From a virus (lineage: Duplodnaviria; Caudoviricetes): a DNA stretch of 64,000 bases. The DNA is taken from positions 64,001 through 128,000 of IMG/VR virus record IMGVR_UViG_3300027804_000038; one strand, given 5' to 3'. A program made the position numbers and the translations under genes. The first letter of the stretch is position 1. Every line of letters begins with the position of its first letter. This document shows positions 37,764 through 60,089 of the stretch, piece by piece. A model generated the notes under the pieces. The model did no database searches. It had not been told where the DNA came from and saw nothing but the letters and a program-made list of their open reading frames with translations.

Positions 37764-38207
37764 TTAAATTATTTTTTTCATTAATTGGTTTATTATTTTT
37801 AATTCTTCAATAACTCTTTGTTCTAATCTTAAAGATGAATTATCATCCCAAGTGTCATGTCTTTCAGATGACTTTCTATGTCTTTCCGAAGGTCTTATAT
37901 CAGACCTTTTAGTATGTTTTTTTAAATGAGAATTTTCAATACCATTATCTTGTTTAATATCTTGCGACGTTGATATATTATCTCTTTCGTTTCCCAACTT
38001 AGTGTCAATCCAATTTTTAAAATACTGACCACCTAAGCTTTCAAGTTCCCCATTCTCCATTCTATTTTTTATACGTTTCAAATTTGAGTATGATATTTTT
38101 TTTGTGTCAATCAAATTTTTAATTGTAGTATTACTTGCATACTTTTCTAAAGATGAAAGTATACTATAGTCAATGTCATAATATCTACCGTATAAATTAT
38201 TATTCAC
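37764..38207 (-). CDS. Hypothetical protein
   Basis: 147 aa, abuts neighbours. Confidence 0.7.
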   Translation of the reverse strand: MNNNLYGRYYDIDYSILSSLEKYASNTTIKNLIDTKKISYSNLKRIKNRMENGELESLGGQYFKNWIDTKLGNERDNISTSQDIKQDNGIENSHLKKHTKRSDIRPSERHRKSSERHDTWDDNSSLRLEQRVIEELKIINQLMKKII

Positions 38208-39027
38208 TTTTTTTTAGTATTTTAATTAATTCTGATGTTGAGATACCTTCTTTATCTGCTAATTTTTTTATTGATTCTAAGTTTTTTACTAATAATTTAC
38301 TTAAAGCTTTATTTTTTTTAGAAATATCTGTGTCTTTTGATTTTTTTCCTAGTAGTATATCTTCCACCATTTTAACCATTTTTTGTTTTCTTTCTTCATC
38401 TATTTTTTCTTTTTCAGATAAAGTTTGTTTTTTTGTCTTTTTAAAAGGATTTTTACCAAAGGCTCTAACTCTATCTGCGGCGTCTATAGGGTCTTCAACG
38501 CCAAGTTCATCCATGAACACTTCCATACTATCAGGACCGTTTAAGTCTTTAGTTTCTTCCCATCCAAAGGCATCCGAAAAATCAATCTCAGTAACAACGT
38601 TGTCATCATTATCATCAATACTCTCACCCCAATAAACTCGATAGCCTCTTGTTACAGGATTATTTGTTTGGTGACTCTGAGTCACTTCTTGGTCCATAGT
38701 TCCTTTAGGTGATATTTTAGGATTATATATTGGTATTTTAGAGCTTAAAAATGTTCCGTCATAATCTACTAGTTCGCCTAACTCTGACTTCAATTTTGAC
38801 AAATGTTTTTTAATTGAATCATTATCTTTAAGTTTTTTTTCTTTAAAAATTTTAGTTAGTTCTTTTTCAATTTTATTCTTATCTTTTTTATTAAATTTAA
38901 TTGAATCGTCTTTTTTTCTAGCTTCAGTTATAACATTGGAAACACTAAAATATAAGACAATATCATTTTTACCTTCTTTAAGATAAAAATAATAAGGACT
39001 TTTAAAATATTCTTTTCTAAATTCCAT
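38200..39027 (-). CDS. Hypothetical protein
   Basis: 275 aa, first gene after late motif at 39042-39048. Confidence 0.7.
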   Translation of the reverse strand: MEFRKEYFKSPYYFYLKEGKNDIVLYFSVSNVITEARKKDDSIKFNKKDKNKIEKELTKIFKEKKLKDNDSIKKHLSKLKSELGELVDYDGTFLSSKIPIYNPKISPKGTMDQEVTQSHQTNNPVTRGYRVYWGESIDDNDDNVVTEIDFSDAFGWEETKDLNGPDSMEVFMDELGVEDPIDAADRVRAFGKNPFKKTKKQTLSEKEKIDEERKQKMVKMVEDILLGKKSKDTDISKKNKALSKLLVKNLESIKKLADKEGISTSELIKILKKSE

Positions 39028-39041
39028 TAAGTTTTTTATCT

Positions 39042-39067
39042 ATAAATACATGGAAATGCGTATTTAT
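39042..39067. promoter_or_regulatory. Back-to-back divergent late promoters
   Basis: ATAAATA 39042-39048 (minus, 14 nt before ATG 39027) and TATTTAT 39061-39067 (plus, 6 nt before ATG 39074). Confidence 0.65.
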
Positions 39068-39073
39068 CATAAG

Positions 39074-41200
39074 ATGTCACAACAGAATATAAGAGAATAT
39101 AATTTTAAAAAATGGTATTTAAGACCTGTGGGTCAAATGCTTGATATAAATTTAGCCTCAGACGAAAGAGACTATAATGAGGAAGTAATATTCTCAACAA
39201 AACTAATCGGACAAGACGATGGTAATCGATTACCAATTTACTTTGATTTAAATAATACAGGGTCTTCACAGCAGATTACCATAAATTATGGAGATTACAT
39301 TTTTGCAAACACTTTAGTTTCATTAAATTATTATAACCCTAATAATGAAAATTTAAATTGCTTAACTTCAAGTACTTTATGTGACATAGGATTAACAGGT
39401 ATTGATAACGGACTTGTGCCTGAAATGACTGGTGAGACCATTAATTTTACTATGGGATTATATACAGGTACCACTAAATGGAATAGGTATTATTTTGATA
39501 GAAGACAAAAATTAATTTCCATAACTGGATATACAAATTTACCAAATGAAAGATTTTCAGGAAACACAAAAGAAACAGTATATGATATGGTATCAAAAAC
39601 TGGAGCCACTGTTGGGTATTATAATCAATTATATGGTGGATTTTATCAAGGATTTTTTAAATTATTTGGATATGATTATGAAACATTTCCTGAACGGACT
39701 AATAAAGGATGGACTGTTGAAATGTTGCTTAGAGCTCGTCAGGAAGAAGAGTTTTCTCCCACATCCGCACAAACAACTTTAAATTTAACATATCCTGAAA
39801 ATAAAAATACTTTTTTTTACTTTGGGACAAGAGCGGAAAACAAATTTTATCATCACGCTTCAGGGTCTCCTTCTTCTGATACAGGGTACACTAGAGTTAC
39901 ATCATACTTGGAGGGTTGTCTAAAAACCTGTGCATGCTCAAATACAGGGGTTACAAATTCTAGATGTATTGAGGTTTACGAACCAATGTTATACACATCA
40001 GAAAGTAATTCAAATTGTAATTGTGTTTGTGAAACAACATCTGAAGTTCTTAATAATGATAAAAATCCCCTTTATGATTCGATGTCAAATTCATTTTCAT
40101 TGCGATTATCAGGTGACCCAAAAAATCCTAAAATTTGTGTTAAAGTTTTAACTTTTACAGGAGGATGTGTTACAACAGGGACTTGTCCTACAACTGGTAT
40201 AACATATCAAACAGGATATACTATAAATGAATATTGTTCATCTAATCAAATTTTTAATTATTGTGCGAATGAAAATTCTTTATTTTTAAACACTGAACAT
40301 TGGTTTTTAATTGATTGTGTATGGGAAAGAAATTCTTATTATGATACATGTGATTTATATTATAATGGTGGATTAGGACTAATATCTAAAAATGTATATG
40401 TGAATAGTTTATCTAATAATTCTGTGTTACTTATACAACCACCAATAACCCACACTGGTAATACTCCAGCTGAAACTGTTGAAATTGTAAATCTTAATGA
40501 AAGGTGGTTGATAGAAAGAGATGAAAGATTAGGTTCGTTAAAAATATTCGTAAACGGTAAATTATTTTATGTGATTAATGGATTTGAAGAAGTAATACCA
40601 AGGGGACTAAACACTGAAAAAGAAAAACAAATTGGTGTTCCGTTTAATATGTCGTGGGGAGGTGGTACACAGGGGTTAAGAGAAAGTTTAACTTTTTCTG
40701 GATGTCCAACAAGTTTAACAGGTAATACATACATACAAGACCCTGAATCAATGCCTAATCAAACATTATCAGGTACTTCTTTATCTGCCTTAACTACAAA
40801 TATATTAATAGAACCAACTTTTGGAGGTTCTTTTGATGGGGCAATATCTCAATTTAGAATGTACGTTGAACCTTTGAGTTATCCTGAGATATTACATAAT
40901 TTTGATATATTAAAAAATCAATTCGAATTGTTTGATTTCAGATGTCCTAATTGTCCAACAGGTTTAACCTATAATATAGGATATAGTGGTAATGGAACTT
41001 CAATATTATTTTCATCCACAACACTTAGTTCGTATACTTTTAATTTATCTTATTCGTCTGAGACCTACCCAAATAGATATTCGGTAGGTAGTGGATTAAC
41101 ATTTAATAATGTTATTACTCCACCATCGTATGAAAATTCATTTTATTATTTTTATTTTTCAGGGTTTGACCAAACTATAAAAGTTAATTTCACTATTTAA
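39074..41200 (+). CDS. Putative virion surface protein, Cys- and Thr/Gly-rich, LamG/ConA-like fold elements
   Basis: Start moved to ATG 39074 (MSQQN), 6 nt after late motif; GWTVEM, LKIFVNGK, FDGAISQFRMY are LamG-like; 13 [ST]GxT motifs; many Cys. Confidence 0.6.
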   Translation: MSQQNIREYNFKKWYLRPVGQMLDINLASDERDYNEEVIFSTKLIGQDDGNRLPIYFDLNNTGSSQQITINYGDYIFANTLVSLNYYNPNNENLNCLTSSTLCDIGLTGIDNGLVPEMTGETINFTMGLYTGTTKWNRYYFDRRQKLISITGYTNLPNERFSGNTKETVYDMVSKTGATVGYYNQLYGGFYQGFFKLFGYDYETFPERTNKGWTVEMLLRARQEEEFSPTSAQTTLNLTYPENKNTFFYFGTRAENKFYHHASGSPSSDTGYTRVTSYLEGCLKTCACSNTGVTNSRCIEVYEPMLYTSESNSNCNCVCETTSEVLNNDKNPLYDSMSNSFSLRLSGDPKNPKICVKVLTFTGGCVTTGTCPTTGITYQTGYTINEYCSSNQIFNYCANENSLFLNTEHWFLIDCVWERNSYYDTCDLYYNGGLGLISKNVYVNSLSNNSVLLIQPPITHTGNTPAETVEIVNLNERWLIERDERLGSLKIFVNGKLFYVINGFEEVIPRGLNTEKEKQIGVPFNMSWGGGTQGLRESLTFSGCPTSLTGNTYIQDPESMPNQTLSGTSLSALTTNILIEPTFGGSFDGAISQFRMYVEPLSYPEILHNFDILKNQFELFDFRCPNCPTGLTYNIGYSGNGTSILFSSTTLSSYTFNLSYSSETYPNRYSVGSGLTFNNVITPPSYENSFYYFYFSGFDQTIKVNFTI

Positions 41201-41204
41201 GAAT

Positions 41205-41211
41205 TATTTAT
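41205..41211 (+). promoter_or_regulatory. Putative late promoter TATTTAT for GT60 cluster
   Basis: 28 nt before ATG 41240; very AT-rich context so weaker. Confidence 0.35.
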
Positions 41212-41239
41212 TTTTTTTATTTTTTAAAAAAATAAATAA

Positions 41240-42484
41240 ATGAAAATTTATATTCAAATTGCGTCATATCGTGACCCACAATTATTACCAACAATCGAAT
41301 CCGCATTAAAAAATGCAAAATTTCCTGAAAATTTAGTTTTTGGTATTGCCAGACAATATTCGGATGAGGATAAATTTGATAGGTTAGATGATTATTACAA
41401 AGATGATAGATTTAGAATAATTGATATACCTTATACTGAGTCAAAAGGAGCTTGTTGGGCTAGAAATAAAATACAACAATATTATAGCGGTGAAACCTAT
41501 ACATTACAAATTGATTCTCATATGAGATTTGCTGAAAATTGGGATTATGAGATGATTGAAATGGTAAAAGATTTACAATTAAAAGGATATAAAAAACCAT
41601 TATTAACGGGTTATGTTTCATCTTTTGACCCTGACAATGACCCCCAACTAAGGATACAAGAACCATGGAGAATGGTTTTTGATAGATTTATACCTGAAGG
41701 AGCAGTTTTCTTTTTACCTGAAACAATCCCAAATTGGAGAGATTTGAGTGGTCCTGTCCCATCAAGATTTTACTCCGCACATTTTTGTTTTACGGTTGGT
41801 GAATTCGCTAAAGAAGTCCAACATGACCCAGAATTTTATTTTCACGGTGAAGAAATTTCAATAGCCGCAAGAGCATATACACATGGTTACGATTTGTTTC
41901 ATCCTCATAAAGTTTTAATTTGGCACGAATACACTCGTAAGGGTAGAACAAAACAATGGGATGATGATAAAAATTGGGTTGAAAAAAATAATTTTTGTCA
42001 TAAGAAAAATCGTTCCCTTTTTGGAATGGACAATGAATCAGAAATGGACTTTGGTAAATACGGTTTTGGAACTGAAAGGTCACTAAGGGAATATGAAAAA
42101 TACTCAGGACTACTATTCTCAAAAAGAGCGGTTCAACAATATACAATAGACAAACACTATCCTCCAAATCCTTATAATTTTAATGATGAAGAAGAATGGA
42201 TGAACTCATTCTCAACAATATTTAAACATTGTATTGATGTATCATATAATCAAGTACCTGAAGACGATTACGATTTTTGGGTTGTTGCTTTTCACGATGA
42301 AAATGACGATACAATACATAGACAAGATATTGATGGAGAAGGCATTAAAATGTTAAAAAATGACCCTGATGGTTATTGTAAAATTTGGAGACAATTTAAT
42401 ACCGATAAAAAACCAAAGTATTGGGTTGTTTGGCCACACTCAATATCTAAAGGATGGTGTGATAGAATAACAGGTAATTTATAA
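41240..42484 (+). CDS. GT60-like polypeptide N-acetylglucosaminyltransferase (Skp1 GlcNAc-transferase family)
   Basis: IYIQIASYRDPQL, SKGACWARN, YTLQIDSHMRF, LLTGY, YFHGEEISIAARAYTHGYDLFHP, WHEY. Confidence 0.85.
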   Translation: MKIYIQIASYRDPQLLPTIESALKNAKFPENLVFGIARQYSDEDKFDRLDDYYKDDRFRIIDIPYTESKGACWARNKIQQYYSGETYTLQIDSHMRFAENWDYEMIEMVKDLQLKGYKKPLLTGYVSSFDPDNDPQLRIQEPWRMVFDRFIPEGAVFFLPETIPNWRDLSGPVPSRFYSAHFCFTVGEFAKEVQHDPEFYFHGEEISIAARAYTHGYDLFHPHKVLIWHEYTRKGRTKQWDDDKNWVEKNNFCHKKNRSLFGMDNESEMDFGKYGFGTERSLREYEKYSGLLFSKRAVQQYTIDKHYPPNPYNFNDEEEWMNSFSTIFKHCIDVSYNQVPEDDYDFWVVAFHDENDDTIHRQDIDGEGIKMLKNDPDGYCKIWRQFNTDKKPKYWVVWPHSISKGWCDRITGNL

Positions 42485-42488
42485 TATT

Positions 42489-43199
42489 ATGGAATTTTGT
42501 TTTGCAACCTTTTGTTTTGGTGAAAGATACTATAATCAAGTAAATAGGTTTATTGAGGATATTGAAAAATCTGATTTTAAACCAACCTTGGTTGTTGTTA
42601 CTGACAACCCAAATAAAATTTTAAAATATGATTTTGTTAAAGTTTTTAACATTTTAGAATTTAATTCAGATTATTCAGATTATGCTAAAAATTACTACGA
42701 TTTTGATTTTTCAGTTAAAAGATATTCTGTAAGAGCTTCTTTTAATTTGGGGTATACAAATATTATTTTAGTAGATGCGGATATGAGAGTTAATTATAAT
42801 CTATTTAATATGGATACAATATATAGTTCATTTACTATAAATTCAATATTAGGTCCTGTAACTTATAATTTTACAGAACAGATTAAAACAAATAGTGAAC
42901 TTGGGGTCCGTTTTATGGAATATGAAAAATATTTTAACATAAATGTAGATAAATCTAATTTGGATTTTATGCCAGAGGATTGTGTCCAATATATAAGTTT
43001 AGATTATGAAAAATACAAACACTTTTTAGATACATGGGATAAGTGTATTGAATATAAGAAAAATAAACCTTTAAGGAATATACCCGCAGGAAACATAGAC
43101 GAAATGTGTTTTTCCGCACTAATTAATGGTATATCTGTAGGTAATAATTCAAGTAAATCTTTAAATATTGTTTATGCAGAACATGACAAATGGTACTAA
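42489..43199 (+). CDS. Putative glycosyltransferase (GT-A fold)
   Basis: VVVTD, KRYSV, ILVDADM DxD motif, DEMCFS; embedded in GT cluster. Confidence 0.6.
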   Translation: MEFCFATFCFGERYYNQVNRFIEDIEKSDFKPTLVVVTDNPNKILKYDFVKVFNILEFNSDYSDYAKNYYDFDFSVKRYSVRASFNLGYTNIILVDADMRVNYNLFNMDTIYSSFTINSILGPVTYNFTEQIKTNSELGVRFMEYEKYFNINVDKSNLDFMPEDCVQYISLDYEKYKHFLDTWDKCIEYKKNKPLRNIPAGNIDEMCFSALINGISVGNNSSKSLNIVYAEHDKWY

Positions 43200-44037
43200 A
43201 ATAGTTTCTTCAATATACGAATTGAATTATGTCCAACAAAGAAATGGGGAAAGATATAAAAATTTTCCACTACTTGTTGCAACAATTAAAAATTTAATTT
43301 TTCCTGAATATAACTATGTAATATATACTGATAAAAATTCATATGATAAGTTTAATTTAAAAGACGAATTTAATTACTCAAACGTAGAATTTAAATTTAA
43401 AGAATTGAACACTTCTGAAACTTGTGAATTAATTGATAAAATCAGAACTGAAGAATTATCAGGTGGGATGAATTATGATAGAATTTATTGCGTAAACAAT
43501 TATTTGGAAGTCGTTATAAACAAACTAAAATTTTTAATTGACGAATCATTTGATTGTGAATCTATTTTTTGGATTGATGCGGGTTTAATAGGTACATCAT
43601 GTCATGATGGATGGAGAGATTACATGGCACCTTTAATCAATTCTAAAAATTTTTTAGACAAAACGGTTGATAAAATCAATAAACATGGTTTCATTCATTT
43701 AAAGGGTAATTCAATTGTGATGAATTATGAAATGAAAGATAGATTTAGAGATTTATTTGGTGTAGAGTTGGATGTAGTTCCAGGTTGTTTATTTGGGGGT
43801 AAATCTGAAAAGGTTAGAAATATTTTAGATGGTTATTTAGATATTTTTGTAAGTTATTTAAAAACACATAACCAATTAATTAGTGAACAAGAAGTACTAA
43901 CCGTACTAACTCAAATTAAAAAGGAAGAATGTTATGCTTTTGAATTTGACGATTGGTTAGACTTACAAAAGTCTTTTTTGAAAATCTTAGACATTTATGA
44001 TGAATCAAAATATGTAAGGGAAAAATGTTATGTTTAA
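43183..44037 (+). CDS. WlaTC/HtrL(YibB)-like glycosyltransferase
   Basis: FWIDAGL, GCLFGG, SEQEVLT motifs shared with the 44590 N-domain; start uncertain (43174 or 43183). Confidence 0.65.
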   Translation: MTNGTKIVSSIYELNYVQQRNGERYKNFPLLVATIKNLIFPEYNYVIYTDKNSYDKFNLKDEFNYSNVEFKFKELNTSETCELIDKIRTEELSGGMNYDRIYCVNNYLEVVINKLKFLIDESFDCESIFWIDAGLIGTSCHDGWRDYMAPLINSKNFLDKTVDKINKHGFIHLKGNSIVMNYEMKDRFRDLFGVELDVVPGCLFGGKSEKVRNILDGYLDIFVSYLKTHNQLISEQEVLTVLTQIKKEECYAFEFDDWLDLQKSFLKILDIYDESKYVREKCYV

Positions 44038-44593
44038 AATAAACATTGTGTGTACAACAATTGGAAGAATCACCTTACCTAGATTAATAGAATCTTTTAA
44101 GAATCAATTAAGTGAGGATGATATTTTTACTATAATTTCAGATACAAATCATTCGTATGTTGGGGAAATATTAAAATTATTTGATTTTAAGTTTAAAGTT
44201 AATCATATTATTAATGAAGGTGAAAGAATGTGGAAATACGGACACCCTTTAATTAACAAATACATTAATGAGTTGGAGGGTGATTTTATCATGTTTGCAG
44301 ATGATGACGATAGATACACTGAGAACGCTTTTAAAGTCATAAAAGAAACCATCAAAGATAAAAATACTTTATATATTTTTAAACACAATTGGTTGGGGGA
44401 TATTAATTGGAAACTTAAAGATTTTACAAGAGGTAATGTTGGTAAATGTATGGGGGTAATACCAAATACCCGTAATTTACCTAAGTTCCAAGAGGATGTT
44501 TTTGGAGATGTTATTTTTTATGAAGAAATAAGTAAAATGTTTAAAAGTGAATTTATTGATTATATAATTTATAAAGTTAGAGATACTGAATGA
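44030..44593 (+). CDS. Glycosyltransferase, GT2-like
   Basis: CTTIGR, YGHPLIN, MFADDDDRY, GDVIFY. Confidence 0.75.
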   Translation: MFKINIVCTTIGRITLPRLIESFKNQLSEDDIFTIISDTNHSYVGEILKLFDFKFKVNHIINEGERMWKYGHPLINKYINELEGDFIMFADDDDRYTENAFKVIKETIKDKNTLYIFKHNWLGDINWKLKDFTRGNVGKCMGVIPNTRNLPKFQEDVFGDVIFYEEISKMFKSEFIDYIIYKVRDTE

Positions 44594-46257
44594 AAAATAT
44601 TACTCTTGTTACAGGTCTTTGGGATATTGGTAGAGAAAATTTATCCGAGGGTTGGTCTAGACCATTTTCACATTATTTAGAAAAATTTGAACAGCTTTTA
44701 AAAGTTGAAAACAATTTAATAATTTTTGGTGAAGAAAATATTGAAGAATTTATTTGGGAAAGAAGAGAGTCTCATAATACACAGTTTATAAAAAGAGATA
44801 AACAATGGTTCATTGATAATGAATTTTTTGGAAAAATACAAAAAATAAGAAATAACCCTGACTGGTATAATCAATCTACGTGGTTAAGAGACTCAACCCA
44901 AGGAAAATTAGAGATGTATAATCCTTTAGTTATGTCTAAAATGTTTTTATTAAATGACGCTAGAATTTTAGATAAATTTGATTCCGATTTAATGTTTTGG
45001 ATTGATGCTGGATTAACAAATACTGTACATTATGGTTATTTTACTCACGATAAAGTTTTAGATAATCTACCAAAATACATTACTAAATTTTCATTTGTAT
45101 GTTTTCCATATGATGCAAATAATGAAATACATGGATTCTCATACCCAAAAATAAATGATTGGGCTGAGAATGATGTTAAAAAAGTTGCGAGGGGTGGATT
45201 TTTTGGAGGACCAAAAGATAGTATCTCAGAGGTTAATTCAATATATTATTCTTTATTAAATGACACATTAGTTAACGATTATATGGGTACGGAAGAATCA
45301 ATATTTTCAATAATGGTCTATAAAAATTCAGAAATTATAAATTATTTTGAAATAGAGTATAATGGACTATTAAGTAAATTTTTTGAAGATTTAAAAAACG
45401 ATAAATTAATAGTTAAATCTGAAAAAAAATTATCTGTTAATTTTGATATTGAAAAAACCGCATTATATGTCATAACATTTAACAGTCCTAATCAATTTGA
45501 GACTTTAATTAACTCAATGATGGAATATGATTCTGATTTTATTCACAAACCAAAAAAATTTTTATTAGATAATTCAACTGATTTGTCTACAACTGAAAGG
45601 TACTTAGAGATATGTAAAGAATACGATTTTGAACATATTAAAAAAGATAACATTGGGATTACTGGAGGTAGACAATTTATAGCTGAACATTTTTATAATA
45701 CTGAGTTAGATTATATGTTTTTCTTTGAGGATGATATGTTTTTTTATTCTAAAAAAGGTGAGGTATGTAAAAATGGGTTTAATCGGTACACAGATTCTTT
45801 ATATCAAAAAAGTTTAGAAATAATTAATAAAGAAAATTTTGATTTTATAAAATTAAACTTTACTGAATTTTATGGGGATAACAGTACACAGTGGAGTTGG
45901 TATAATGTCCCTCAAAATTTTAGAGAGTCTCATTGGCCAAAAAATAAAAAATTACCTAAAATGGGATTGGACCCAAATGCCCCAAGAACAAAATTTAATG
46001 AAATAAAATCTCATAAAGGGGTTCCATACGCATCAGGAGAAGTTTATCTATGTAATTGGCCCATATTACTATCAAAACAGGGAAACTATAAATGTTATAT
46101 TGAAACAAAATATGAACATCCTTTTGAACAAACATTAATGTCCCACAATTTCCAAGAAACTATTAAAGGAAATTTAAAACCTGGAATATTATTAATGACC
46201 CCTACCGAACATAATCGATTTGACCATTATGATTCTTCTTTAAGAAAAGAGTGTTAA
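44590..46257 (+). CDS. WlaTC/HtrL-like plus GT2-like fusion glycosyltransferase
   Basis: ITLVTGLWDIGRENL, YNPLVMSKMFLL, FWIDAGL, GGFFGG, GTEESIFS; C-half LLDNS, ITGGRQFIAEHF, FFEDDMF. Confidence 0.78.
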   Translation: MKNITLVTGLWDIGRENLSEGWSRPFSHYLEKFEQLLKVENNLIIFGEENIEEFIWERRESHNTQFIKRDKQWFIDNEFFGKIQKIRNNPDWYNQSTWLRDSTQGKLEMYNPLVMSKMFLLNDARILDKFDSDLMFWIDAGLTNTVHYGYFTHDKVLDNLPKYITKFSFVCFPYDANNEIHGFSYPKINDWAENDVKKVARGGFFGGPKDSISEVNSIYYSLLNDTLVNDYMGTEESIFSIMVYKNSEIINYFEIEYNGLLSKFFEDLKNDKLIVKSEKKLSVNFDIEKTALYVITFNSPNQFETLINSMMEYDSDFIHKPKKFLLDNSTDLSTTERYLEICKEYDFEHIKKDNIGITGGRQFIAEHFYNTELDYMFFFEDDMFFYSKKGEVCKNGFNRYTDSLYQKSLEIINKENFDFIKLNFTEFYGDNSTQWSWYNVPQNFRESHWPKNKKLPKMGLDPNAPRTKFNEIKSHKGVPYASGEVYLCNWPILLSKQGNYKCYIETKYEHPFEQTLMSHNFQETIKGNLKPGILLMTPTEHNRFDHYDSSLRKEC

Positions 46258-46262
46258 TTCTA

Positions 46263-46269
46263 TATTTAT
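46263..46269 (+). promoter_or_regulatory. Putative late promoter TATTTAT
   Basis: 5 nt before ATG 46275. Confidence 0.55.
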
Positions 46270-46274
46270 GTAAT

Positions 46275-46655
46275 ATGGAATTTTTCATAAAACAAGGTGC
46301 GACTTTACCGTTATTAAAAATGCAATTCTTTGAGGATGGAAAATCCTCTATGGATGATTTTAATTCTTTGGTTGAAAATTCAGCTATTTATTTTTCGATG
46401 AAAAATGCTGAGACGGGAGTATATAAATTTTTAAATAAACCTGCGGGTATTACAACGAAGACATTTATTGAACCTAATGCCAAGGTAGAATATTATATTT
46501 ACTATAAATTTTCTTCTTCAGATACTAATAAAGTTGGTAGATATGAAGGGGAATTTTTAATAGTGTCTGATGATGGTACTGCAATTCTACCAATTACTGA
46601 AAAATTATACATAAACATTGGAGAAAAATTTGTAATTAATGGACTTTTATATTAA
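46275..46655 (+). CDS. BppU-N-like virion adaptor protein
   Basis: Start moved to ATG 46275 (MEFFIKQGATLP), 5 nt after late motif; Y.F...DT..VG.YEGEF.I pattern. Confidence 0.65.
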   Translation: MEFFIKQGATLPLLKMQFFEDGKSSMDDFNSLVENSAIYFSMKNAETGVYKFLNKPAGITTKTFIEPNAKVEYYIYYKFSSSDTNKVGRYEGEFLIVSDDGTAILPITEKLYINIGEKFVINGLLY

Positions 46656-47571
46656 AAAAGGAGCTTCATTACCGATATTAAAAGTCGAGATGTGTTTAGA
46701 TGGTAGAAGTGACTATCACCTTAACTCTTATATTAACAGTGAGTTACCTGTTTATTTATCATTAATTAACGAATCAAATGGTACTATTTTGTTCGCCTCA
46801 AAAGAGTGTTTTGTAACTTCTGAATTTTCTTCGTTTGAAAATAAAATGTTGTATTATATTAATTACCAATTTACTAGAAAGGAAACTAATGAAATAGGTA
46901 AATTTACAACTCAATTTTCTATATCAAGTGATAATGGTGTAGTATTACTTCCATTAAAAGAGAAGATATATGTAAACATAATTGACTCATTTTCTGTTAA
47001 TGATTTTGGAAGTCAATCAAAATATATCGTAGACTTACCATGTTGCAATCCCCCAAATCCAACACCAACCCCGACACAGACCCCAACACCTACTCAAACT
47101 CAAACACCGACACAAACTAACACTCAAACACCTACACAGACGCAAACACCTACACAAACACAAACGCAAACGCCTACACAAACCCAAACACCTACGCAGA
47201 CTAGTTCGCAGACCCCAACTCCAACATTAACCCCAACCCAAACAAATACCCCAACACCGTCAAATAGTAATTTTATTTATTCTTTTACATCAAATTCTTC
47301 AATAAATACTTTAAGGATTGACGATGTAACTTTAGGTTACTCAATTATTGTAACTACAAATACTACTTCTAATTTTATATTACCTAGTGGAAATACATAT
47401 AGAGTTAGGTTAATCTTTACCCCTGGTGGAGGTTCATCCGCAACTTTAAGATTGACTAAAAATGGAGTTGCAATATTCGATAGTACAATTCTATCACCAG
47501 GCACTCTGGATACGGGTAATTTAGTCGCAACAAATGCTCAATACATTTGTACCGCAACGATTCCAAAATAG
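46639..47571 (+). CDS. BppU-N-like domain + Pro/Thr/Gln mucin-like linker + C-terminal beta domain
   Basis: N-domain paralogous to upstream gene (MDFYIKKGASLP); ~70 aa PT/QT repeat. Confidence 0.7.
   Translation: MDFYIKKGASLPILKVEMCLDGRSDYHLNSYINSELPVYLSLINESNGTILFASKECFVTSEFSSFENKMLYYINYQFTRKETNEIGKFTTQFSISSDNGVVLLPLKEKIYVNIIDSFSVNDFGSQSKYIVDLPCCNPPNPTPTPTQTPTPTQTQTPTQTNTQTPTQTQTPTQTQTQTPTQTQTPTQTSSQTPTPTLTPTQTNTPTPSNSNFIYSFTSNSSINTLRIDDVTLGYSIIVTTNTTSNFILPSGNTYRVRLIFTPGGGSSATLRLTKNGVAIFDSTILSPGTLDTGNLVATNAQYICTATIPK
47050..47262 (+). repeat. Coding low-complexity repeat (PTPTPTQTPTPTQTQ...)
   Basis: Imperfect 6-12 nt period with varied synonymous codons. Confidence 0.95.
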
Positions 47572-47656: not shown

Positions 47657-50584
47657 ATGATATCAAACGAAGAAATTGAAAATTTCCTTCAAGGAAATGA
47701 CGAAGAAAAATATATCGTCGCAATAGAATACGATTATGTAAAAGATTGTATTTGGAAAATTATTGAGCACCCAATTCACGGAAAACAAATTAAAAAAGAT
47801 ACGTTCATTCCATTCGCATGGGTTGGTGATTTACGTGGGTTAAACTTTTATCAATCCTCCAAGGCATTACAAAAAGAGGCAATGACTAAACATAAAATTG
47901 TCATTGAAAAATTAAGAACAGATGGTAACGATAGGCTTGAGAGAGGTTTAACTTTTATGGTTAAATCTTTAAACGGTTATCGTTCGCTAATACAGTTTTT
48001 TAGAGAGGGCGGTGTTGACCCGTGGGGTGAAAAAACTAAAAGTTTAGTTTTGATTTTACCCCCTGTTGAGCAATATTTGGTCGTAAAAGAAAAAAGATTA
48101 TTTAAAGGATTTGACGATTACGATAGTATTACTAGATTTGTATTCGACTTAGAGACAACTTCATTAGAACCAAAAGATGGACGTATCTTTATGATTGGTA
48201 TGAAAACAAATAAAGGTTTTCGTGAGGTAATAGAATGTGCAACAGAGGAACAAGAAAGAGAAGGTATAATTAAATTCTTCAATAGAATTGATGAATTAAA
48301 ACCAAGTATAATTGCATCTTATAATGGTTTTAACTTCGACTGGTTTTGGATATTTGAAAGGGCAAAATGTTTAAATCTTGATATTAAAAAAATTGCAAAA
48401 ACTTTAAATCCGTCAAACCAAATAAAACAATCTGAAAGTTTATTGAAATTGGCGAATGAGGTTGAGAGGTTTAACCAAACATCAATGTGGGGGTATAATG
48501 TTGTCGACACATTACATGCGGTAAGAAGAGCTCAGGCAATTAATTCAAGTATTAAATCTGCAGGTTTGAAGTATATCACTCAATATATTAAGGCTGAAGC
48601 TCCTGACCGAGTCTATATTGACCATACAGACATAGGCTCAATGTATTCCAAAAAAGAAGAATATTGGTTAAACATTCAGAATGGGAAATATAAAAAAGTA
48701 GGGTTAGACCAATCAATTGACGAATCATGCTCAAAGCACCCAAATGTTTATATTAAAACAACTGGTGATGATTTGGTTGAACGATATCTTGATGATGACT
48801 TGGAAGAAACATTAAAGGTAGATGAGGAATTCAACCAAGGCTCTTTTCTACTCGCGTCATTAGTTCCAACAACATATGAAAGGGTTTCCACTATGGGAAC
48901 CGCAACATTATGGGAAATTCAAATGAGAGCATGGTCATATAAACATAAACTAGCGATTCCTGCAAAGAATGAAAAAACAGATTTTGTAGGTGGATTATCC
49001 AGATTATTAAAAGTAGGATACTCAACTGATGTATTGAAACTTGACTTCTCGTCACTTTATCCTTCAATACAACTTGTTCACGATGTATTCCCAACCTGTG
49101 ATATTACAGGAGCGATGAAAGGAATGTTAAATTATTTTCGTAACACCCGTATTAAGTATAAAAACTTGGCTAAAGAATATTCCGAAATAGACACTAAAAA
49201 ATCTACATCATACGATAGAAAACAATTACCGATTAAGATTTTTATTAACTCGATGTTTGGAGCTCTATCAGCTCCCCAAGTATATCACTGGGGAGATATG
49301 TATATGGGTGAACAGATTACTTGTACAGGACGACAATATCTTCGTCAGATGTTACGATTCTTTATGAAACGAGGATATACCCCACTTGTATGTGATACGG
49401 ATGGTATGAACTTCTCATTACCCGAAGGTGGTGTAGACGATAGAGTGTATATCGGTAAGGGGAAAAATTGGTTAGTTAAGGAAGGTAAGGAATATAAAGG
49501 GTACGACGCAGATGTTGCCGAGTTTAATGATATGTTCATGAAAGGAGCAATGGGTCTTGACTGTGATGGTACTTGGAAATCTTGTATGAACATTGCTCGT
49601 AAGAACTATGCAACAATGGAACATAATGGTAAAATTAAACTTACAGGTAACTCAATTAAGAGTAAAAAACTTCCTCTTTATATTGAGGATTTTTTGGACA
49701 AAGGAATCAAGATGTTACTTGAAGGGAATGGACAGGACTTTGTTGAGTGGTATTATGAATACTTAGAAAAAATCTATAATAGACAGATTCCTTTAATGAA
49801 AATTGCCCAAAGAGCAAAGGTTAAATTGTCAATTGAAGATTACAAAAAACGTTCAAAAGAAAAAACCAAAGCAGGTAATGAAATGTCTCGTATGGCACAC
49901 ATGGAGCTTGCAATAAGAGATGGTATTGCGGTGAGTTTAGGTGATGTAATATTCTATGTTAATAATGGGGTTAAGGCGTCTCACGGGGATGTTCAGAAAG
50001 TAAATAAACCAAAAAAAGGATGGTCTCAAGAACAATTAGATATATTTTTCAAAACCAATGAAGATAGAAAAGAAAAGGTAAAATTTTTACAAAAAAATGG
50101 ATGGGAACAATCTTGGGGTGATGATAACTGGGTTCGTAGTAATGCGACAAACAAAGAAGCAAATACGGGAATTCCAACAGAACAGGCATATCAAATAGCA
50201 ATTTCAGATATGGTCGGTTCAGTAGTTCAACTTAATTGTTATAGATTGAATCAGTCTGAGTTAGAGTCAAACCCTGATATGTTAGGTGATTATAATGTCC
50301 CAAGAGCAATTGTTACTTTTAATAAAAGAATTGAACCATTATTAATTGTTTTTGGTGAAGAAGTAAGAAATAATTTGATTGTTGATAAACCTGAAGATAG
50401 AGGTGTGTTCACAAAAGAACAATGTAAATTAATTAATGGTGTTCCATTTGAACCTGCAGACCAAGATAGTATTGAAGATTTATTAACAATAACAGAACAA
50501 GAAAAAGTTTATTGGGATAAACGAGGTATTAATCCTGAATATATATATGAACTTGCTGAAGAAGGGTGGGAAGAAATGGTGTAA
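47657..50584 (+). CDS. DNA polymerase, family B
   Basis: Exo FDLETT, YNGFNFDW, YLDDD; pol LDFSSLYPSI, KIFINSMFG, CDTDG, ARKNY. Confidence 0.96.
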   Translation: MISNEEIENFLQGNDEEKYIVAIEYDYVKDCIWKIIEHPIHGKQIKKDTFIPFAWVGDLRGLNFYQSSKALQKEAMTKHKIVIEKLRTDGNDRLERGLTFMVKSLNGYRSLIQFFREGGVDPWGEKTKSLVLILPPVEQYLVVKEKRLFKGFDDYDSITRFVFDLETTSLEPKDGRIFMIGMKTNKGFREVIECATEEQEREGIIKFFNRIDELKPSIIASYNGFNFDWFWIFERAKCLNLDIKKIAKTLNPSNQIKQSESLLKLANEVERFNQTSMWGYNVVDTLHAVRRAQAINSSIKSAGLKYITQYIKAEAPDRVYIDHTDIGSMYSKKEEYWLNIQNGKYKKVGLDQSIDESCSKHPNVYIKTTGDDLVERYLDDDLEETLKVDEEFNQGSFLLASLVPTTYERVSTMGTATLWEIQMRAWSYKHKLAIPAKNEKTDFVGGLSRLLKVGYSTDVLKLDFSSLYPSIQLVHDVFPTCDITGAMKGMLNYFRNTRIKYKNLAKEYSEIDTKKSTSYDRKQLPIKIFINSMFGALSAPQVYHWGDMYMGEQITCTGRQYLRQMLRFFMKRGYTPLVCDTDGMNFSLPEGGVDDRVYIGKGKNWLVKEGKEYKGYDADVAEFNDMFMKGAMGLDCDGTWKSCMNIARKNYATMEHNGKIKLTGNSIKSKKLPLYIEDFLDKGIKMLLEGNGQDFVEWYYEYLEKIYNRQIPLMKIAQRAKVKLSIEDYKKRSKEKTKAGNEMSRMAHMELAIRDGIAVSLGDVIFYVNNGVKASHGDVQKVNKPKKGWSQEQLDIFFKTNEDRKEKVKFLQKNGWEQSWGDDNWVRSNATNKEANTGIPTEQAYQIAISDMVGSVVQLNCYRLNQSELESNPDMLGDYNVPRAIVTFNKRIEPLLIVFGEEVRNNLIVDKPEDRGVFTKEQCKLINGVPFEPADQDSIEDLLTITEQEKVYWDKRGINPEYIYELAEEGWEEMV

Positions 50585-56909: not shown

Positions 56910-59900
56910 ATGGCTACATCAAACAAAGTTTTTGTTTCTCCAGGTGTTTACACATCTGAAAGAGACTTATCATTTGTGGCACAAAGTGTTGGTGTAACAA
57001 CTTTAGGTATTGTTGGGGAGACACAAAAAGGACCCGCTTTTGAACCTATTTTTGTGACTAACTATGATGAGTTCCAATCGTATTTTGGAGGTACCTCACC
57101 TGAAAAATTTGTGAACACGCAAATACCTAAATATGAAGCGGCATATATTGCTAAATCATATTTACAACAATCTAACCAATTATTTGTAACAAGAATATTG
57201 GGGTTATCGGGATATGACGCTGGTCCGTCATGGTCTATTAAAACAATTGCGAATGTTGATTGTAATACAATAGGATTTAACGGTACTGCAACAACATCTT
57301 CATTTACTTTTACAGGAACAAGTGCGTCAACATCATCAATTACACTAACAAGTGTTCCATCCCCAATCTCATCTATTATTAATGATGTCTATACAGAATT
57401 TGATGGAGGAACTTCAAGTATTTCTGAGCAAATTCAAACTCAGTTATTGAATGTTATGAGGTCAACAGGTACTTCTGCAACTTCAATATACTACTTTGGA
57501 GCTATGTCAGGAGCGTCAATAACTGCGGCAATAGGGTCAGGATATACATCACCAACAAATGTTTATTCAGTATCCTCAATTACTGCAGAAACTATTGATT
57601 ACTGTTCAGGTTTAAATGACGCATGGTACTATTCACAGTTTAGTCCCGTTGGTACTACTTCATATTCAGGATTTTCGTTTAATACTTATGTCACTAAATT
57701 AGCTGCTTTAGGTACGCCAGGTCAATATTCAGGTATAGTAACAACTACTGTTAATACTTTTTCAGGTACCCCTTACACTAATTACAGTGATTTAGTAATT
57801 GCAACATTACGTTCAAGAGGTATTACTAATTACAGTTCAACACAATCAGGACCTTTATACCAAGTTAGTGCAACTTCGGCAGTTACTATGGTTTGTACAG
57901 GTTCTTATTCAGGAGTTAGTGAAAATCCGTTTAATACATTTGTAATTTCAGGTGTGACATACCAAGGTTCTAATTTCTCATTTGAGACTTCTTTTGAGAT
58001 TGCTAATTCTAATTATATTACTAAGGTATTTGGTTCAGGTAATTTTGATAAAGACAGAACAGAAGTTCCTTTGTTTGTTGAAGAGCGTTACCAAACCTTA
58101 TTACAATATGGTTATAATAAAGGATATATTAGAGGTTTAAGTTGTTCTTTAGAGTCTTTACCTGAAGCTAGAAACTTAGACACTTCATCAATAGCCAATT
58201 ATTTAGAAAGATATCAAACAGCATTCTCACCATGGGTAGTTTCAGAATTACGTGGTAATAAAGTTTATGAATTGTTTAGATTTGTAACAATATCTGACGG
58301 AGACGCTGCGAACAGAGAAGTTAAAGTTTCTTTAGCAAATATGTCATTTAATAACCAAACATTTGACGTAATAGTTAGAGATTATTATGATAACGACTCA
58401 AATCCTGTGGTACTTGAGAAATTCACTAACTGTACTATGGACCCTGATTTGAATAGTTATATAGCTAAAAAAATCGGTTCGACTGACGGTGAATACGCAA
58501 TACTTTCTAAGTATATAATGGTTGAAATGAACTATGATGCACCGATAGACGCACTTCCATGTGGTTTTGAAGGTTACATTATTAGAACTTATGGAGGAGC
58601 AACTTCACCATTCCCTGTATACAAAACTAAGTATGATTTCCCAGGTGAAGTAATTTATAACCCTCCATTTGGTAACACTAATGGTACTGACGATTCTGTT
58701 ACAAGTTCTGGAGATAATGTTAGAAGAACTTACTTAGGATTCTCAACTTCATTAGGGTTTGATTCTGACTTCTTTGAATATAAAGGTAAACAAGTTCCAA
58801 CTTCTTGGAGTTGTTCAGAACAAGATTACAGTAATTGGGGTGACTTAACTAAAGGTTTCCACATGGATAGTGGAGCAACTGCGGTTACGATATCTTCAAC
58901 ATACTCAACATCAGGTCAATCGGCCTTTGAAGTCGGAGATTCATCATTCTCTCAAGAACCAACAAGTTCAAGCGACCCATATTACAGACTTTATTCTCGT
59001 AAATTCACTGTGTGTGTTTACGGTGGTTTTGACGGATGGGATATCTATAGAGAATACAGAACAAATGAAGATAGATTCATCCTTGGTGAATCAGGATATT
59101 TAGCGGGAGCACAAGCAGGTTGTTCACCTTACACAAACGCAACTGGATGGGGGGCGTTTAAGAGAATCACTGTTGGTGATAACGTAGTTGATTGGGCAAA
59201 TACTGACTATTACGCTTACTTATTAGGTATTAGAAGTTTTGAAAATCCTGAAGTTACTAACATAAACGTTTTAGTTACTCCTGGTATTGACTTTGTTAAT
59301 AACTCAAACTTAACTGAGGCGACTATTGATATGGTTGAAAACGATAGAGCGGATTCAATCTATATTGTAACTAGTCCTGACTTTGACCTATACCAACCAT
59401 CAACTTCTATGGATAACTTAATCTATCCTCAAGAAGCGGTTGATAATTTAGAAACAACAGGTATAGATTCTAACTACACCGCAACTTACTATCCTTGGGT
59501 TCTTACTCGTGATACGGTTAATAACACTCAAATCTATATTCCAGCAACCGCAGAAGTTACAAGAAACTTGGCGTTAACTGACAATATTGCATTCCCTTGG
59601 TTCGCAACTGCGGGATACACAAGAGGTGTTGTAAACGCAATCAGAGCAAGAAAACGTTTAACTCAAGAAGATAGAGATACTCTATACAAAGGAAGAATTA
59701 ACCCGATTGCAACATTCAACGATGTTGGTACTGTAATATGGGGTAATAAAACACTTCAAATTAGAGAGTCGGCTCTTGATAGAATAAATGTTAGAAGATT
59801 GTTGTTACAAGCTCGTAAATTGATTTCAGCGGTGGCTGTAAGATTATTGTTTGAACAAAATGATAACGTAGTTAGACAACAATTTTTAGACTCAGTTAAT

Positions 59901-60089
59901 CCAATATTAGACGCTATTAGAAGAGATAGAGGATTATATGACTTTAGAGTTACCGTACAAAATACACCTGAAGATTTGGATAATAACCAATTAGTTGGTA
60001 AAATTTACATAAAACCAACAAAATCTTTAGAATTTATTGATATTGAATTCTTAATTACTCCTACAGGTGCTAGTTTTGAAGATATCTAA
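56910..60089 (+). CDS. Tail sheath protein (T4 gp18-like) with Ser/Thr-rich insertion
   Basis: SPGVYTSE.DLS, VGETQKGPAFEP, YYPWV, PWFATAGYTRG, RINPI, WGNKTL, LDRINVRRLL. Confidence 0.96.
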   Translation: MATSNKVFVSPGVYTSERDLSFVAQSVGVTTLGIVGETQKGPAFEPIFVTNYDEFQSYFGGTSPEKFVNTQIPKYEAAYIAKSYLQQSNQLFVTRILGLSGYDAGPSWSIKTIANVDCNTIGFNGTATTSSFTFTGTSASTSSITLTSVPSPISSIINDVYTEFDGGTSSISEQIQTQLLNVMRSTGTSATSIYYFGAMSGASITAAIGSGYTSPTNVYSVSSITAETIDYCSGLNDAWYYSQFSPVGTTSYSGFSFNTYVTKLAALGTPGQYSGIVTTTVNTFSGTPYTNYSDLVIATLRSRGITNYSSTQSGPLYQVSATSAVTMVCTGSYSGVSENPFNTFVISGVTYQGSNFSFETSFEIANSNYITKVFGSGNFDKDRTEVPLFVEERYQTLLQYGYNKGYIRGLSCSLESLPEARNLDTSSIANYLERYQTAFSPWVVSELRGNKVYELFRFVTISDGDAANREVKVSLANMSFNNQTFDVIVRDYYDNDSNPVVLEKFTNCTMDPDLNSYIAKKIGSTDGEYAILSKYIMVEMNYDAPIDALPCGFEGYIIRTYGGATSPFPVYKTKYDFPGEVIYNPPFGNTNGTDDSVTSSGDNVRRTYLGFSTSLGFDSDFFEYKGKQVPTSWSCSEQDYSNWGDLTKGFHMDSGATAVTISSTYSTSGQSAFEVGDSSFSQEPTSSSDPYYRLYSRKFTVCVYGGFDGWDIYREYRTNEDRFILGESGYLAGAQAGCSPYTNATGWGAFKRITVGDNVVDWANTDYYAYLLGIRSFENPEVTNINVLVTPGIDFVNNSNLTEATIDMVENDRADSIYIVTSPDFDLYQPSTSMDNLIYPQEAVDNLETTGIDSNYTATYYPWVLTRDTVNNTQIYIPATAEVTRNLALTDNIAFPWFATAGYTRGVVNAIRARKRLTQEDRDTLYKGRINPIATFNDVGTVIWGNKTLQIRESALDRINVRRLLLQARKLISAVAVRLLFEQNDNVVRQQFLDSVNPILDAIRRDRGLYDFRVTVQNTPEDLDNNQLVGKIYIKPTKSLEFIDIEFLITPTGASFEDI

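Follow-up and report, generated by a model that had tools for sequence, protein, structure and literature searches.

To our knowledge, very few tailed phages are known to glycosylate the proteins of their particles with enzymes of their own, and a mucin-type system started by GT60 has not been described in any virus of bacteria. The GT60 polypeptide alpha-GlcNAc-transferases of T. cruzi and Dictyostelium act on Thr-rich mucins. The Skp1 pathway of Dictyostelium and Toxoplasma is opened by a soluble cytoplasmic GT60 initiator and continued by PgtA, which we take to be a bifunctional, two-domain enzyme. In chloroviruses, N-linked glycans are carried by the capsid protein. Among phages, the glycosylation of mycobacteriophage virion proteins by phage enzymes has been reported (Freeman et al. 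2023, cited in PMC12619734). The virions of the Xanthomonas jumbo phage XacN1 contain at least two PAS-stained glycoprotein bands, which were ascribed by the authors to phage transferases and were matched to no particular protein, nor to ORF334 (PMC5852040). Phage-encoded virion glycosylation is thus already known, and the locus described here would add a new form of it. An earlier note on this DNA had proposed that a tailed phage glycosylates itself as giant eukaryotic viruses do; its novelty was overstated, since such a process was reported for mycobacteriophages (cited in PMC12619734) and suggested for XacN1.

The window, a stretch of 64,000 nucleotides, comes from a 294-kb environmental jumbo phage. 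Five closely packed glycosyltransferase genes form an unbroken row on its plus strand (41240-46257), in the order GT60 (PF11397), DxD GT-A, HtrL-like, GT2 and HtrL+GT2 fusion, with no terminator on this strand between 38.9 and 47.8 kb. Every gene of the earlier list was found in place, on the plus strand and tightly packed, and the proposed sandwich, with transferases between putative acceptor genes, holds here and in 76 distinct related loci. By inspection, the five enzymes have no obvious membrane segment. Replication genes adjoin the island, a DNA polymerase at 47657 and a helicase at 52802. The window also encodes the sugar-nucleotide enzymes GMD, DegT aminotransferases and a PglD-like acetyltransferase. 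A second large cluster of sugar genes lies on the minus strand at 16-36 kb, and GT8/GT9 genes are found elsewhere in the genome, outside the island.

The first gene of the island (41240-42484) encodes a protein that matches PF11397 (GlcNAc)/GT60 with 231.9 bits (cut-off 21, E 1.9e-68), in agreement with a scan of the phage's own genome, and phrog_24687 with E 1e-170. Its AF2 model has a pLDDT of 96, and the best structural match among reviewed proteins is the Dictyostelium Skp1-Hyp GlcNAc-transferase Gnt1 (E 2.6e-25, TM 0.67). The other top AFDB-SwissProt matches and the top PDB matches are all polypeptide GalNAc-transferases. All of 48 diverse homologues have D92 and H94, and nearly all have S93; this D-x-H motif presumably corresponds to the metal site of Gnt1. 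Pfam profile and model together place the protein firmly in GT60, as the earlier note had it, and predict a UDP-GlcNAc:polypeptide (Thr/Ser/Hyp) transferase-like enzyme. The bacterial and phage branch of PF11397 is large, with 4570 cluster representatives. Bacterial relatives include a protein with four GT60 domains fused to prolyl-hydroxylase-type 2OG oxygenase domains (P0002) and one whose gene adjoins that of a PqqD peptide-recognition protein (P0040). Other proteins (P0031, P0054 and P0086) combine a GT60 and an HtrL domain in one chain, which ties the two families to one pathway.

The assignments of the other four enzymes are likewise supported by motif, BLASTP and Pfam evidence. The small GT-A-like product of 42489-43199 has no Pfam match; it contains an ILVDADM sequence with a DxD motif, and by its Atlas features it neighbours clusters of the GT8/GT6/Nucleotid_trans type. 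The single-domain HtrL-like enzyme (43174-44037, or from 43168) is linked to HtrL_YibB solely through BLASTP similarity to the HtrL domain of the 44590 protein (E 1e-6), with which it has the FWIDAGL motif in common. The product of 44030-44593 scores 25.5 bits as GT2 (cut-off 23.3). The last gene, 44590-46257, encodes a two-domain protein whose N-domain matches HtrL_YibB (PF09612) with 62.6 bits (cut-off 24.1, E 5.7e-17) and NCBIfam TIGR02192 with 75 bits; since the latter falls below the equivalog cut-off of 264.9, the domain is considered to belong to the HtrL family without being an equivalog of E. coli YibB. Its C-domain is GT2-like with an invariant EDD motif.

The likeness to the Skp1 pathway lies in a soluble cytoplasmic GT60 initiator followed by a two-domain transferase and single-domain enzymes, with no lipid carrier in either system. 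In contrast to that pathway, the phage has no prolyl hydroxylase, so that Thr or Ser is a more likely acceptor than hydroxyproline; its GT60 enzyme is only 24% identical to Gnt1 and has an extra C-terminal beta domain of about 90 residues (approximately 325-414), and the elongating enzymes come from other families (HtrL and GT2). With the mucin systems of GT27 ppGalNAc-Ts and the T. cruzi/Dictyostelium GT60 enzymes the phage has in common the GT-A domain, the D-x-H motif, the PDB matches to ppGalNAc-Ts and candidate acceptors made of PT or poly-Thr tandem repeats. However, the phage process would be cytoplasmic, whereas theirs takes place in the Golgi, and the phage enzyme lacks a ricin-type lectin domain. 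Chloroviruses and mimivirus resemble the phage in that the virus itself encodes many soluble transferases, sugar-nucleotide enzymes and sugar methyltransferases, and in cytoplasmic glycosylation, as proposed here for the phage, but they belong to another viral realm and infect another host domain. In mycobacteriophages, as here, the phage's own transferases are taken to modify virion proteins in the bacterial cytoplasm. As cited in PMC12619734, however, the mycobacteriophage enzymes reportedly modify capsid and tail-tube subunits at their C-termini, unlike the mucin-like linkers of peripheral proteins considered here, and neither GT60 and HtrL nor a hypervariable cassette island bounded by two conserved enzymes is described there.

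The candidate acceptors are encoded on both sides of the transferase genes. Upstream, the 39074-41200 product, a candidate virion surface protein, is LamG/ConA-like by its Atlas features and rich in Thr (10.5%, genome median 5.2%) and Cys (2.7%, genome median 1.0%). The open reading frame begins at 39050, and a start at 39074 suits the spacing of the promoter-like motif. Downstream, the products of 46275-46655 and 46639-47571 have a common N-domain of about 120 residues (37% identity), which makes up the whole of the first, 126-residue protein. In the second, the Ig-like N-domain (1-120) is followed by a PCC motif, a 72-residue PT(Q) repeat linker at about 137-208 and a small beta-rich C-domain. 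The model of the Ig-like domain has a pLDDT of about 90, and the fold search (VIA) gave the baseplates of 80alpha (Z 8.8) and NF5 (Z 8.2), TP901-1 BppU (4v96_AA, Z 7.7; 3uh8, Z 7.5) and generic Ig domains (6.5-8). Except for the low-complexity linker, 46251/46639 have no match in Pfam, PHROG or NCBIfam; the flanking proteins match no PHROG or Pfam structural family, and a profile search of the BppU-type domain against PDB sequences returned nothing relevant. The earlier label BppU-like draws on fold matches of middling score (Z 7.5-8.8), the best of them to phage baseplate proteins, and has no match in Pfam behind it. From the domain types, the promoter motif and these fold matches, we infer that the flanking proteins are located in the virion. 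The 46639 protein is the best candidate acceptor. The locus combines a Thr/Pro-rich tandem repeat with genes for a predicted HexNAc-transferase that would initiate glycosylation on polypeptides and for elongating enzymes. Phage fibres often contain PT linkers, glycosylated or otherwise.

The earlier note had placed late TATTTAT motifs before all three parts of the locus. Across the whole window this 7-mer is not enriched (47 found, 68 expected), but 53 of the 347 upstream regions contain the 8-mer TATTTATA, where 3 would be expected, and it is on this ground considered a real promoter-like motif. Copies at the usual spacing precede the genes at 39074 (motif at 39061-39067, 13 nt from the ATG) and 46275 (46263-46269, 12 nt). 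The GT60 gene has no canonical copy; the motif at 41205-41211 lies 35 nt upstream, an atypical spacing, in a weaker context. The motif is also found upstream of the terminase large subunit gene and a protease gene and, with non-canonical spacing, 42 nt before the tail sheath gene; none precedes the DNA polymerase or helicase genes. With this distribution, late timing is plausible from sequence.

A survey of gene neighbourhoods of GT60 homologues in IMG/VR, where the clade comprises at least 185 contigs, covered 80 related loci with 76 distinct architectures. The island opens with the GT60 gene in the 76 distinct loci and closes with the HtrL+GT2 fusion (the fusion was found in 76 of the 80 loci), after which come Ig-like proteins. 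Between these fixed ends each locus contains one to nine swapped glycan cassettes, among them GT10, GT25, GT7 and GT34 enzymes, sugar O-methyltransferases and genes of NDP-sugar synthesis. The cassettes of the window are variable as well: the GT2 gene is present in 18 of the 80 loci, and the DxD GT-A family has 35 clustered gene copies, with a tblastn match in 21 loci. The layout common to the 76 loci is partly inherited synteny, because all belong to one clade. Both flanks encode lectin- or adhesin-like proteins rich in PT or poly-Thr. The place of the 39074 gene is taken by homologues or other lectin-like proteins, and upstream neighbours contain Laminin_G_3, DUF285, PA14/GLEYA or F5/8-C domains; nearly all members of the Ig family longer than 150 residues run on into a PT/poly-T linker. 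The distinct loci, 1352 kb in all, encode 95 PT/poly-T proteins, where the own-genome rate would give no more than 14, and all 95 are flanking, with none inside the island. No membrane segments were predicted in representatives of 55 protein families of the islands and flanks of these relatives.

The same module was found beside baseplate genes in distant Xanthomonas jumbo phages; its carriers are XacN1 (ORF330-334), Xoo-sp13 and Stenotrophomonas phages CM1 and RAS14. XacN1 is GC-rich, belongs to another clade and has a polymerase only weakly related to that of this phage. Its module contains a homologous GT60 enzyme (48-49% identity), an HtrL-like enzyme (ORF332, a weak homologue of the 43174 product) and an HtrL+GT2 fusion (ORF330, 43% identity). 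In contrast to the locus described here, it includes a carbamoyltransferase and has neither the DxD GT-A nor the GT2 cassette, and it abuts genes of a baseplate wedge and a 3313-residue PT-linker protein, where the present locus has Ig-PT genes.

With moderate confidence, we read the locus as a probable phage-encoded, cytoplasmic island of mucin-type protein O-glycosylation, with the acceptor assigned indirectly. The enzymes may instead remodel the host envelope, acting on LPS/LOS core or another surface glycoconjugate, for instance to block superinfection or to keep progeny off debris, with the adhesin-like genes as mere neighbours in a variable region. HtrL, GT25 and GT8/GT9 enzymes are typical of LPS/LOS core assembly, whose transferases also lack membrane segments. 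HtrL_YibB is found in LPS loci, the GT25 cassettes of the relatives are of the LOS/LPS-core type and need no membrane segments, GT8 and GT9-like genes are present in other parts of this genome or in XacN1, the swapping of cassettes recalls O-antigen loci, and Iyer et al. read polymorphic glycosyltransferase clusters of jumbo phages as modifiers of surface polysaccharides (PMC7824862). We nevertheless consider such remodelling unlikely. The structural neighbours of the conserved lead enzyme are all polypeptide-acting, a Pfam scan of 20 cassette families revealed no polyprenol-phosphate priming phosphotransferase, flippase, polymerase or ligase, both flanks are strongly enriched in PT/poly-T proteins, and in XacN1 the glycoprotein stain is on the virions themselves (PMC5852040). 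The glycoproteins of XacN1 virions also tell against the more doubtful idea that the substrates are host or non-structural phage proteins, modified for takeover or regulation with no virion coat. Moreover, the genes on the flanks resemble lectins or mucins and not host-takeover genes, and a hypervariable set of elongating enzymes with O-methyltransferases and fucosyl/galactosyl-type transferases fits a regulatory mono-glycosylation poorly. This idea draws on the ability of GT60 and GT-A enzymes to modify folded cytoplasmic proteins, of which Skp1 is the paradigm, and on the replication genes beside the island.

Proximity to replication genes could also point to DNA hypermodification, in which the transferases would glycosylate a modified base of the phage DNA against restriction. 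A family-B DNA polymerase gene lies a few kb downstream of the island in the clade, and in XacN1 about 5 kb separate the island from the genes of the polymerase and RNase H; DNA glycans of several sugars have been described (PMC13326640). In the fusion, the C-domain weakly matches TAGT (E 0.048) and phrog_842, a beta-glucosyl-HMC alpha-glucosyltransferase family (E 0.0012), but both scores are far under the cut-offs, and the tabulated DNA glycosyltransferases resemble bacterial GT-B-type enzymes, unlike GT60 (PMC13326640). The sole thymidylate synthase homologue scores above the equivalog cut-offs of NCBIfam for thymidylate synthase, retains L143, C146, D169 and N177, and has none of the changes diagnostic of dCMP hydroxymethylase or 5-hydroxy-dCMP synthase (PMC13326640). 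The genome has no match to 2OG oxygenase or prolyl hydroxylase, nor to TET/JBP profiles, the latter a weak absence, as the TET control was positive in no control genome. Because the genome lacks a source of hydroxylated pyrimidines, we regard DNA glycosylation as very improbable.

Under protein O-glycosylation, the GT60 enzyme would act late in infection and transfer HexNAc, probably GlcNAc, from a UDP-sugar to Thr or Ser of the linkers of proteins bound for the virion. The two-domain HtrL+GT2 enzyme would add the next sugars, and the variable DxD GT-A, HtrL-like and GT2 enzymes would complete a strain-specific oligosaccharide, for which the minus-strand sugar cluster may supply unusual NDP-sugars. 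The outcome would be a fibre or baseplate periphery decorated with glycans that differ among related phages. More tentatively, this may be a property of the whole, widespread clade of aquatic jumbo phages: mucin-type O-glycosylation in the bacterial cytoplasm, in which a fixed GT60 and a fixed HtrL+GT2 enzyme bracket swapped Golgi-like transferases, methyltransferases and NDP-sugar enzymes, and lectin-like and Ig-anchored mucin-linker proteins are exchanged alongside, so that enzymes and acceptors would co-diversify and every phage would have a virion periphery with a glycan code of its own.

The question is directly testable in the cultivable Xanthomonas and Stenotrophomonas phages that bear the same module. 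If the proposal is true, it would provide a testable function for the many PF11397 proteins of bacteria and phages and for the uncharacterised HtrL family, and a compact set of soluble enzymes for the production of mucin-like glycoproteins in bacteria. It would account for more than 25 kb of sugar genes in these jumbo phages, and it would mean that phages build complex, strain-variable O-glycans on virion proteins wholly in the cytoplasm.

The source record is 293,850 bp long and is called complete by CheckV; the G+C content is about 29%. The gene content of the window is that of a jumbo tailed phage, with a tail sheath (56910-60089), a family-B DNA polymerase (47657-50584) and a helicase; the terminase large subunit gene lies outside the window, just 5' of its start. 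A megablast search with the 9-kb island and its flanks found no counterpart among GenBank phages. PMC12619734 describes a 'moraphage' lineage with four core glycosyltransferase (GT) orthogroups, and affiliation of the source phage with it is only a lead.

The region 39050/39074-47571 contains eight genes, all on the plus strand and overlapping or separated by very short gaps; no terminator-like sites were found on that strand across the region. Five of these genes form a glycosyltransferase island. Its first product (41240-42484) is an unambiguous member of GT60 (PF11397, E 1.9e-68; phrog_24687, E 1e-170). It is followed by a DxD-motif enzyme (42489-43199) that has no Pfam match and GT8/GT6-like neighbours by Atlas features, a one-domain HtrL-like protein (43168-44037; BLASTP E 1e-6 against the fusion), a GT2 enzyme (44030-44593), and an HtrL+GT2 fusion (44590-46257). 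The fusion has HtrL_YibB at its N-terminus (E 5.7e-17) and a C-terminal domain with an invariant EDD motif and feature neighbours of GT2 type; a PDB sequence search with the profile of this C-terminal domain gave nothing usable. The description of the row in the earlier note is therefore correct.

The AlphaFold2 model of the GT60 protein, built from 48 diverse homologues, has a mean pLDDT of 96. Among reviewed proteins, its top match is the Dictyostelium Skp1-hydroxyproline GlcNAc-transferase (E 2.6e-25, 24% identity, TM 0.67), and all subsequent matches are polypeptide GalNAc-transferases; nearly all of the approximately 40 best PDB matches are likewise ppGalNAc-T structures. The homologues all share D92 and H94 and nearly all share S93, and an additional beta-rich C-terminal domain (residues ~325-414) is retained in Xanthomonas phage homologues. 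On the strength of the model, the structural matches and these residues, the lead enzyme does model as GT60, as the proposal of a phage O-glycosylation system with GT60 priming virion proteins had presumed. PDB sequence searches with the protein and with the GT60 profile yielded nothing usable, and literature searches for phage-encoded GT60 or PF11397 proteins turned up no relevant paper.

The GT60 family is large: a HMMER search of 1.84 billion representatives retrieved 4570 clusters at E<=1e-3, of which 895 remain when the cut-off is tightened to E<=1e-30. GT60+HtrL fusions are known in both domain orders (P0031, P0054, P0086). A bacterial protein of 2461 residues (locus L088, 6001-13386) combines four GT60 domains with AhpC/TSA-like and prolyl-hydroxylase-type 2OG-Fe(II) oxygenase domains, and another bacterial homologue (locus L086, 41% identical) adjoins a PqqD-type peptide-recognition protein. 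All three observations link this part of the GT60 family to HtrL and to substrates that are proteins or peptides. The neighbours of the GT60-oxygenase gene are housekeeping genes; the L086 neighbourhood (PqqD/ScmC/FkbM) resembles a peptide-modification cluster.

Searching IMG/VR with the GT60 protein gave 185 contigs at 70-80% identity; 80 of these were retrieved and their ORFs clustered. The layout of the island is conserved in these relatives. GT60 is the first gene in every locus and the HtrL+GT2 fusion (550-820 residues) the last island gene in 76 of the 80; the one to nine genes in between vary by locus. Representatives of these cassettes include GT25, GT10 fucosyltransferase-like, GT7-like, GT2 and GT34-like transferases, sugar O-methyltransferases of RMNT/CmcI, FkbM and RfbT type, other SAM methyltransferases, and a fusion of HAD phosphatase with sugar-1-phosphate nucleotidyltransferase. 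Membrane segments were predicted in none of the 55 families tested.

The gene directly 5' of GT60 is as variable as the cassettes; its product has 175-3289 residues, with Laminin_G_3, DUF285 (BspA-like repeats), PA14/GLEYA or F5/8-type-C domains and frequent PT runs. One or two members of an Ig-like family follow the island in 74 of the 80 loci, and nearly all members longer than ~150 residues carry, beyond the Ig-like domain, a tract of PT or poly-Thr and then a variable C-terminal domain. By a strict definition, the 76 distinct loci, which together span 1352 kb, contain 95 PT/poly-T proteins, where the rate in the source phage genome predicts no more than 14; the loci are related to one another and the background is a single genome. 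All 95 flank the island and none lies inside it. Other variable flank genes encode an LCIB-type beta-carbonic-anhydrase-like protein (L076/L082, 15805-16878), a protein with a phosphatidylethanolamine-binding (PBP) domain (L043, 13407-15353) and an 880-residue DUF285 repeat protein (L077, 7305-9947; E 7e-125).

More distant GT60 proteins (46-49% identity) occur in an independent lineage, represented by XacN1 and Xoo-sp13, which are Xanthomonas phages, and by the Stenotrophomonas phages CM1 and RAS14. The order in the two loci examined, XacN1 and Xoo-sp13, is GT60, carbamoyltransferase, HtrL-like, one gene and the fusion (43% identity). The XacN1 module is convergent with a run of baseplate wedge genes, a gene for a 3313-residue protein and a GT9 gene. 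A PT linker sits close to the C-terminal end of this giant protein, whose Xoo-sp13 orthologue has a PT/S run of 30 residues. At least two XacN1 virion protein bands are Schiff-stained; the authors ascribe them to ORF328/ORF334, the bands themselves being unmatched to proteins (PMC5852040). This staining is the only experimental evidence on the O-glycosylation proposal, and it is indirect.

In the source phage, the protein upstream of the island (39050/39074, 716 residues) has twice the genome median of Thr and almost three times that of Cys, and by Atlas features is like LamG/ConA-like lectin proteins of phages. The two downstream proteins (46275-46655 and 46639-47571) have in common an N-domain of ~120 residues, which in the second gives way to a PCC motif, then a PT(Q) repeat of 72 residues and finally a small domain rich in beta structure. 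The N-domain model (pLDDT ~90) has an Ig-like fold with best VIA matches to the 80alpha (Z 8.8) and NF5 (Z 8.2) baseplates, and matches TP901-1 BppU at Z 7.7 in the baseplate and Z 7.5 as an isolated N-domain; unrelated Ig domains score Z 6.5-8. It matched no sequence family, and a PDB sequence search with the Ig-family profile returned nothing usable. Taking the domain for a virion anchor of BppU type, in keeping with the 'BppU-like' label in the earlier note, is reasonable but falls short of membership in the family. Complex prediction for GT60 with residues 1-230 of the 46639 protein scored 0.00, which speaks neither for nor against binding. Further candidate acceptors remote from the island are an 883-residue leucine-rich-repeat-like PT-repeat protein beside the terminase (genome 61011-63662, ending ~340 bases before the window) and a 337-residue PT-repeat protein (genome 168078-169091) in a block of large Thr-rich proteins at 162-178 kb.

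The word TATTTAT is not over-represented across the window (47 found against 68 expected); its significance is confined to placement upstream of genes. Of the 347 upstream regions, 53 contain TATTTATA, where 3 were expected, and the promoter-like motif (A/G)TATTTAT(A) precedes 94 of 347 genes in the whole genome (in the window, for example, at 1508, 2939, 3986, 7642, 39061, 46263 and 62546). Its distance to the ATG is bimodal, 11-13 or 20-24 nt. Canonical spacing is observed before the terminase large subunit and a protease; the motif lies at a non-canonical 42 nt upstream of the tail sheath and is absent upstream of the DNA polymerase, the helicase and a long minus-strand sugar operon. The motif may plausibly be a late promoter. 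Of the late motifs that had been noted before all three parts of the region, those preceding 39074 and 46275 are canonically spaced, and only the one before 41240 is atypical. A divergent minus-strand gene (38200-39027) with its own TATTTAT motif encodes a 275-residue Lys/Glu/Asp-rich protein, kept in ~20 related loci, whose sole match is a faint ribbon-helix-helix at the C-terminus.

A second, larger sugar-gene cluster lies on the minus strand (16332-36420) and is without the TATTTAT motif. It encodes GT2, GDP-mannose 4,6-dehydratase, two DegT-type aminotransferases, an FkbM methyltransferase, a GT-D-like protein, a PglD-like acetyltransferase, an NAD epimerase/dehydratase, another GT2, GT8, a GT2_5+GT4 fusion and a GT-B (phrog_7162), with PhoH and 3'-5' exonuclease genes embedded. 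The GT60 island may draw amino or deoxy sugars (perosamine- or bacillosamine-like) from this cluster. Genes for PAPS synthesis and sulfation form a module on the minus strand at genome 198491-206768 (sulfotransferase, APS kinase, a HIGH-type nucleotidyltransferase/ATP-sulfurylase-like protein and a DUF2061 protein), downstream of Thr-rich proteins without a Pfam match; a 292-residue 'GT9-like' gene there also had no Pfam match.

The main rival to a protein acceptor is remodelling of host LPS/LOS. HtrL, GT25, GT8 and GT9 are typical of core-oligosaccharide assembly, which requires no membrane-embedded transferase, and the interpretation of jumbo-phage GT clusters as host-surface glycan remodelling by Iyer et al. 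(PMC7824862) agrees with it. However, it leaves both the conserved GT60 lead enzyme and the XacN1 glycoproteins unexplained. Host or non-structural proteins are possible targets, though a poor fit to a hypervariable multi-enzyme elongation set. Glycosylation of hypermodified DNA deserved serious attention because the polymerase adjoins the island and the fusion has faint TAGT/phrog_842 matches. Against it, the sole thymidylate synthase homologue of the genome (L005, 1483-2619; genome 269116-270252; 378 residues, ~100 of them extra in insertions) clears the NCBIfam thymidylate synthase equivalog cut-offs and retains the canonical active-site equivalents of E. coli L143, C146, D169 and N177, of which D169N is the 5-hydroxy-dCMP synthase signature and N177 marks substrate specificity (Lee et al., PMC13326640). 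A TET/JBP search of the phage gave no match, and its control also matched nowhere. DNA hypermodification was set aside on the residue check and the TET search. We give the protein-acceptor reading of the island an even chance.

The island is probably co-transcribed with the genes on its flanks, starting from the motif at 39061 and a second time from that at 46263. In the proposed mechanism, GT60 would transfer HexNAc onto Thr/Ser of PT/poly-T linkers in future virion-periphery proteins, with the 46639 protein, perhaps the 39074 protein, and the two remote PT-repeat proteins as candidates. The bifunctional HtrL+GT2 enzyme would add the next sugars, and the variable enzymes would complete a phage-specific glycan. 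The analysis establishes the enzyme families, the layout of the island and the conservation of that layout; which sugar is transferred, to which acceptor, in what order the enzymes act and that the products sit on the virion are inferences. Hydroxyproline was considered as acceptor after the bacterial GT60-oxygenase fusions; no 2OG oxygenase was found in the phage, so Thr/Ser is more likely, a host enzyme being conceivable. In outline the scheme is closer to the cytoplasmic Skp1 pathway than to any bacterial lipid-linked system.

Autonomous glycosylation is well known in giant viruses. Virion glycosylation by phage-encoded enzymes is known in mycobacteriophages, as cited in PMC12619734, and was earlier suggested for XacN1 (PMC5852040). 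What would be new is the GT60 mucin-type chemistry, and an island with fixed bounds that swaps its cassettes and, across a large environmental clade, diversifies together with the adhesin-like proteins on either side.
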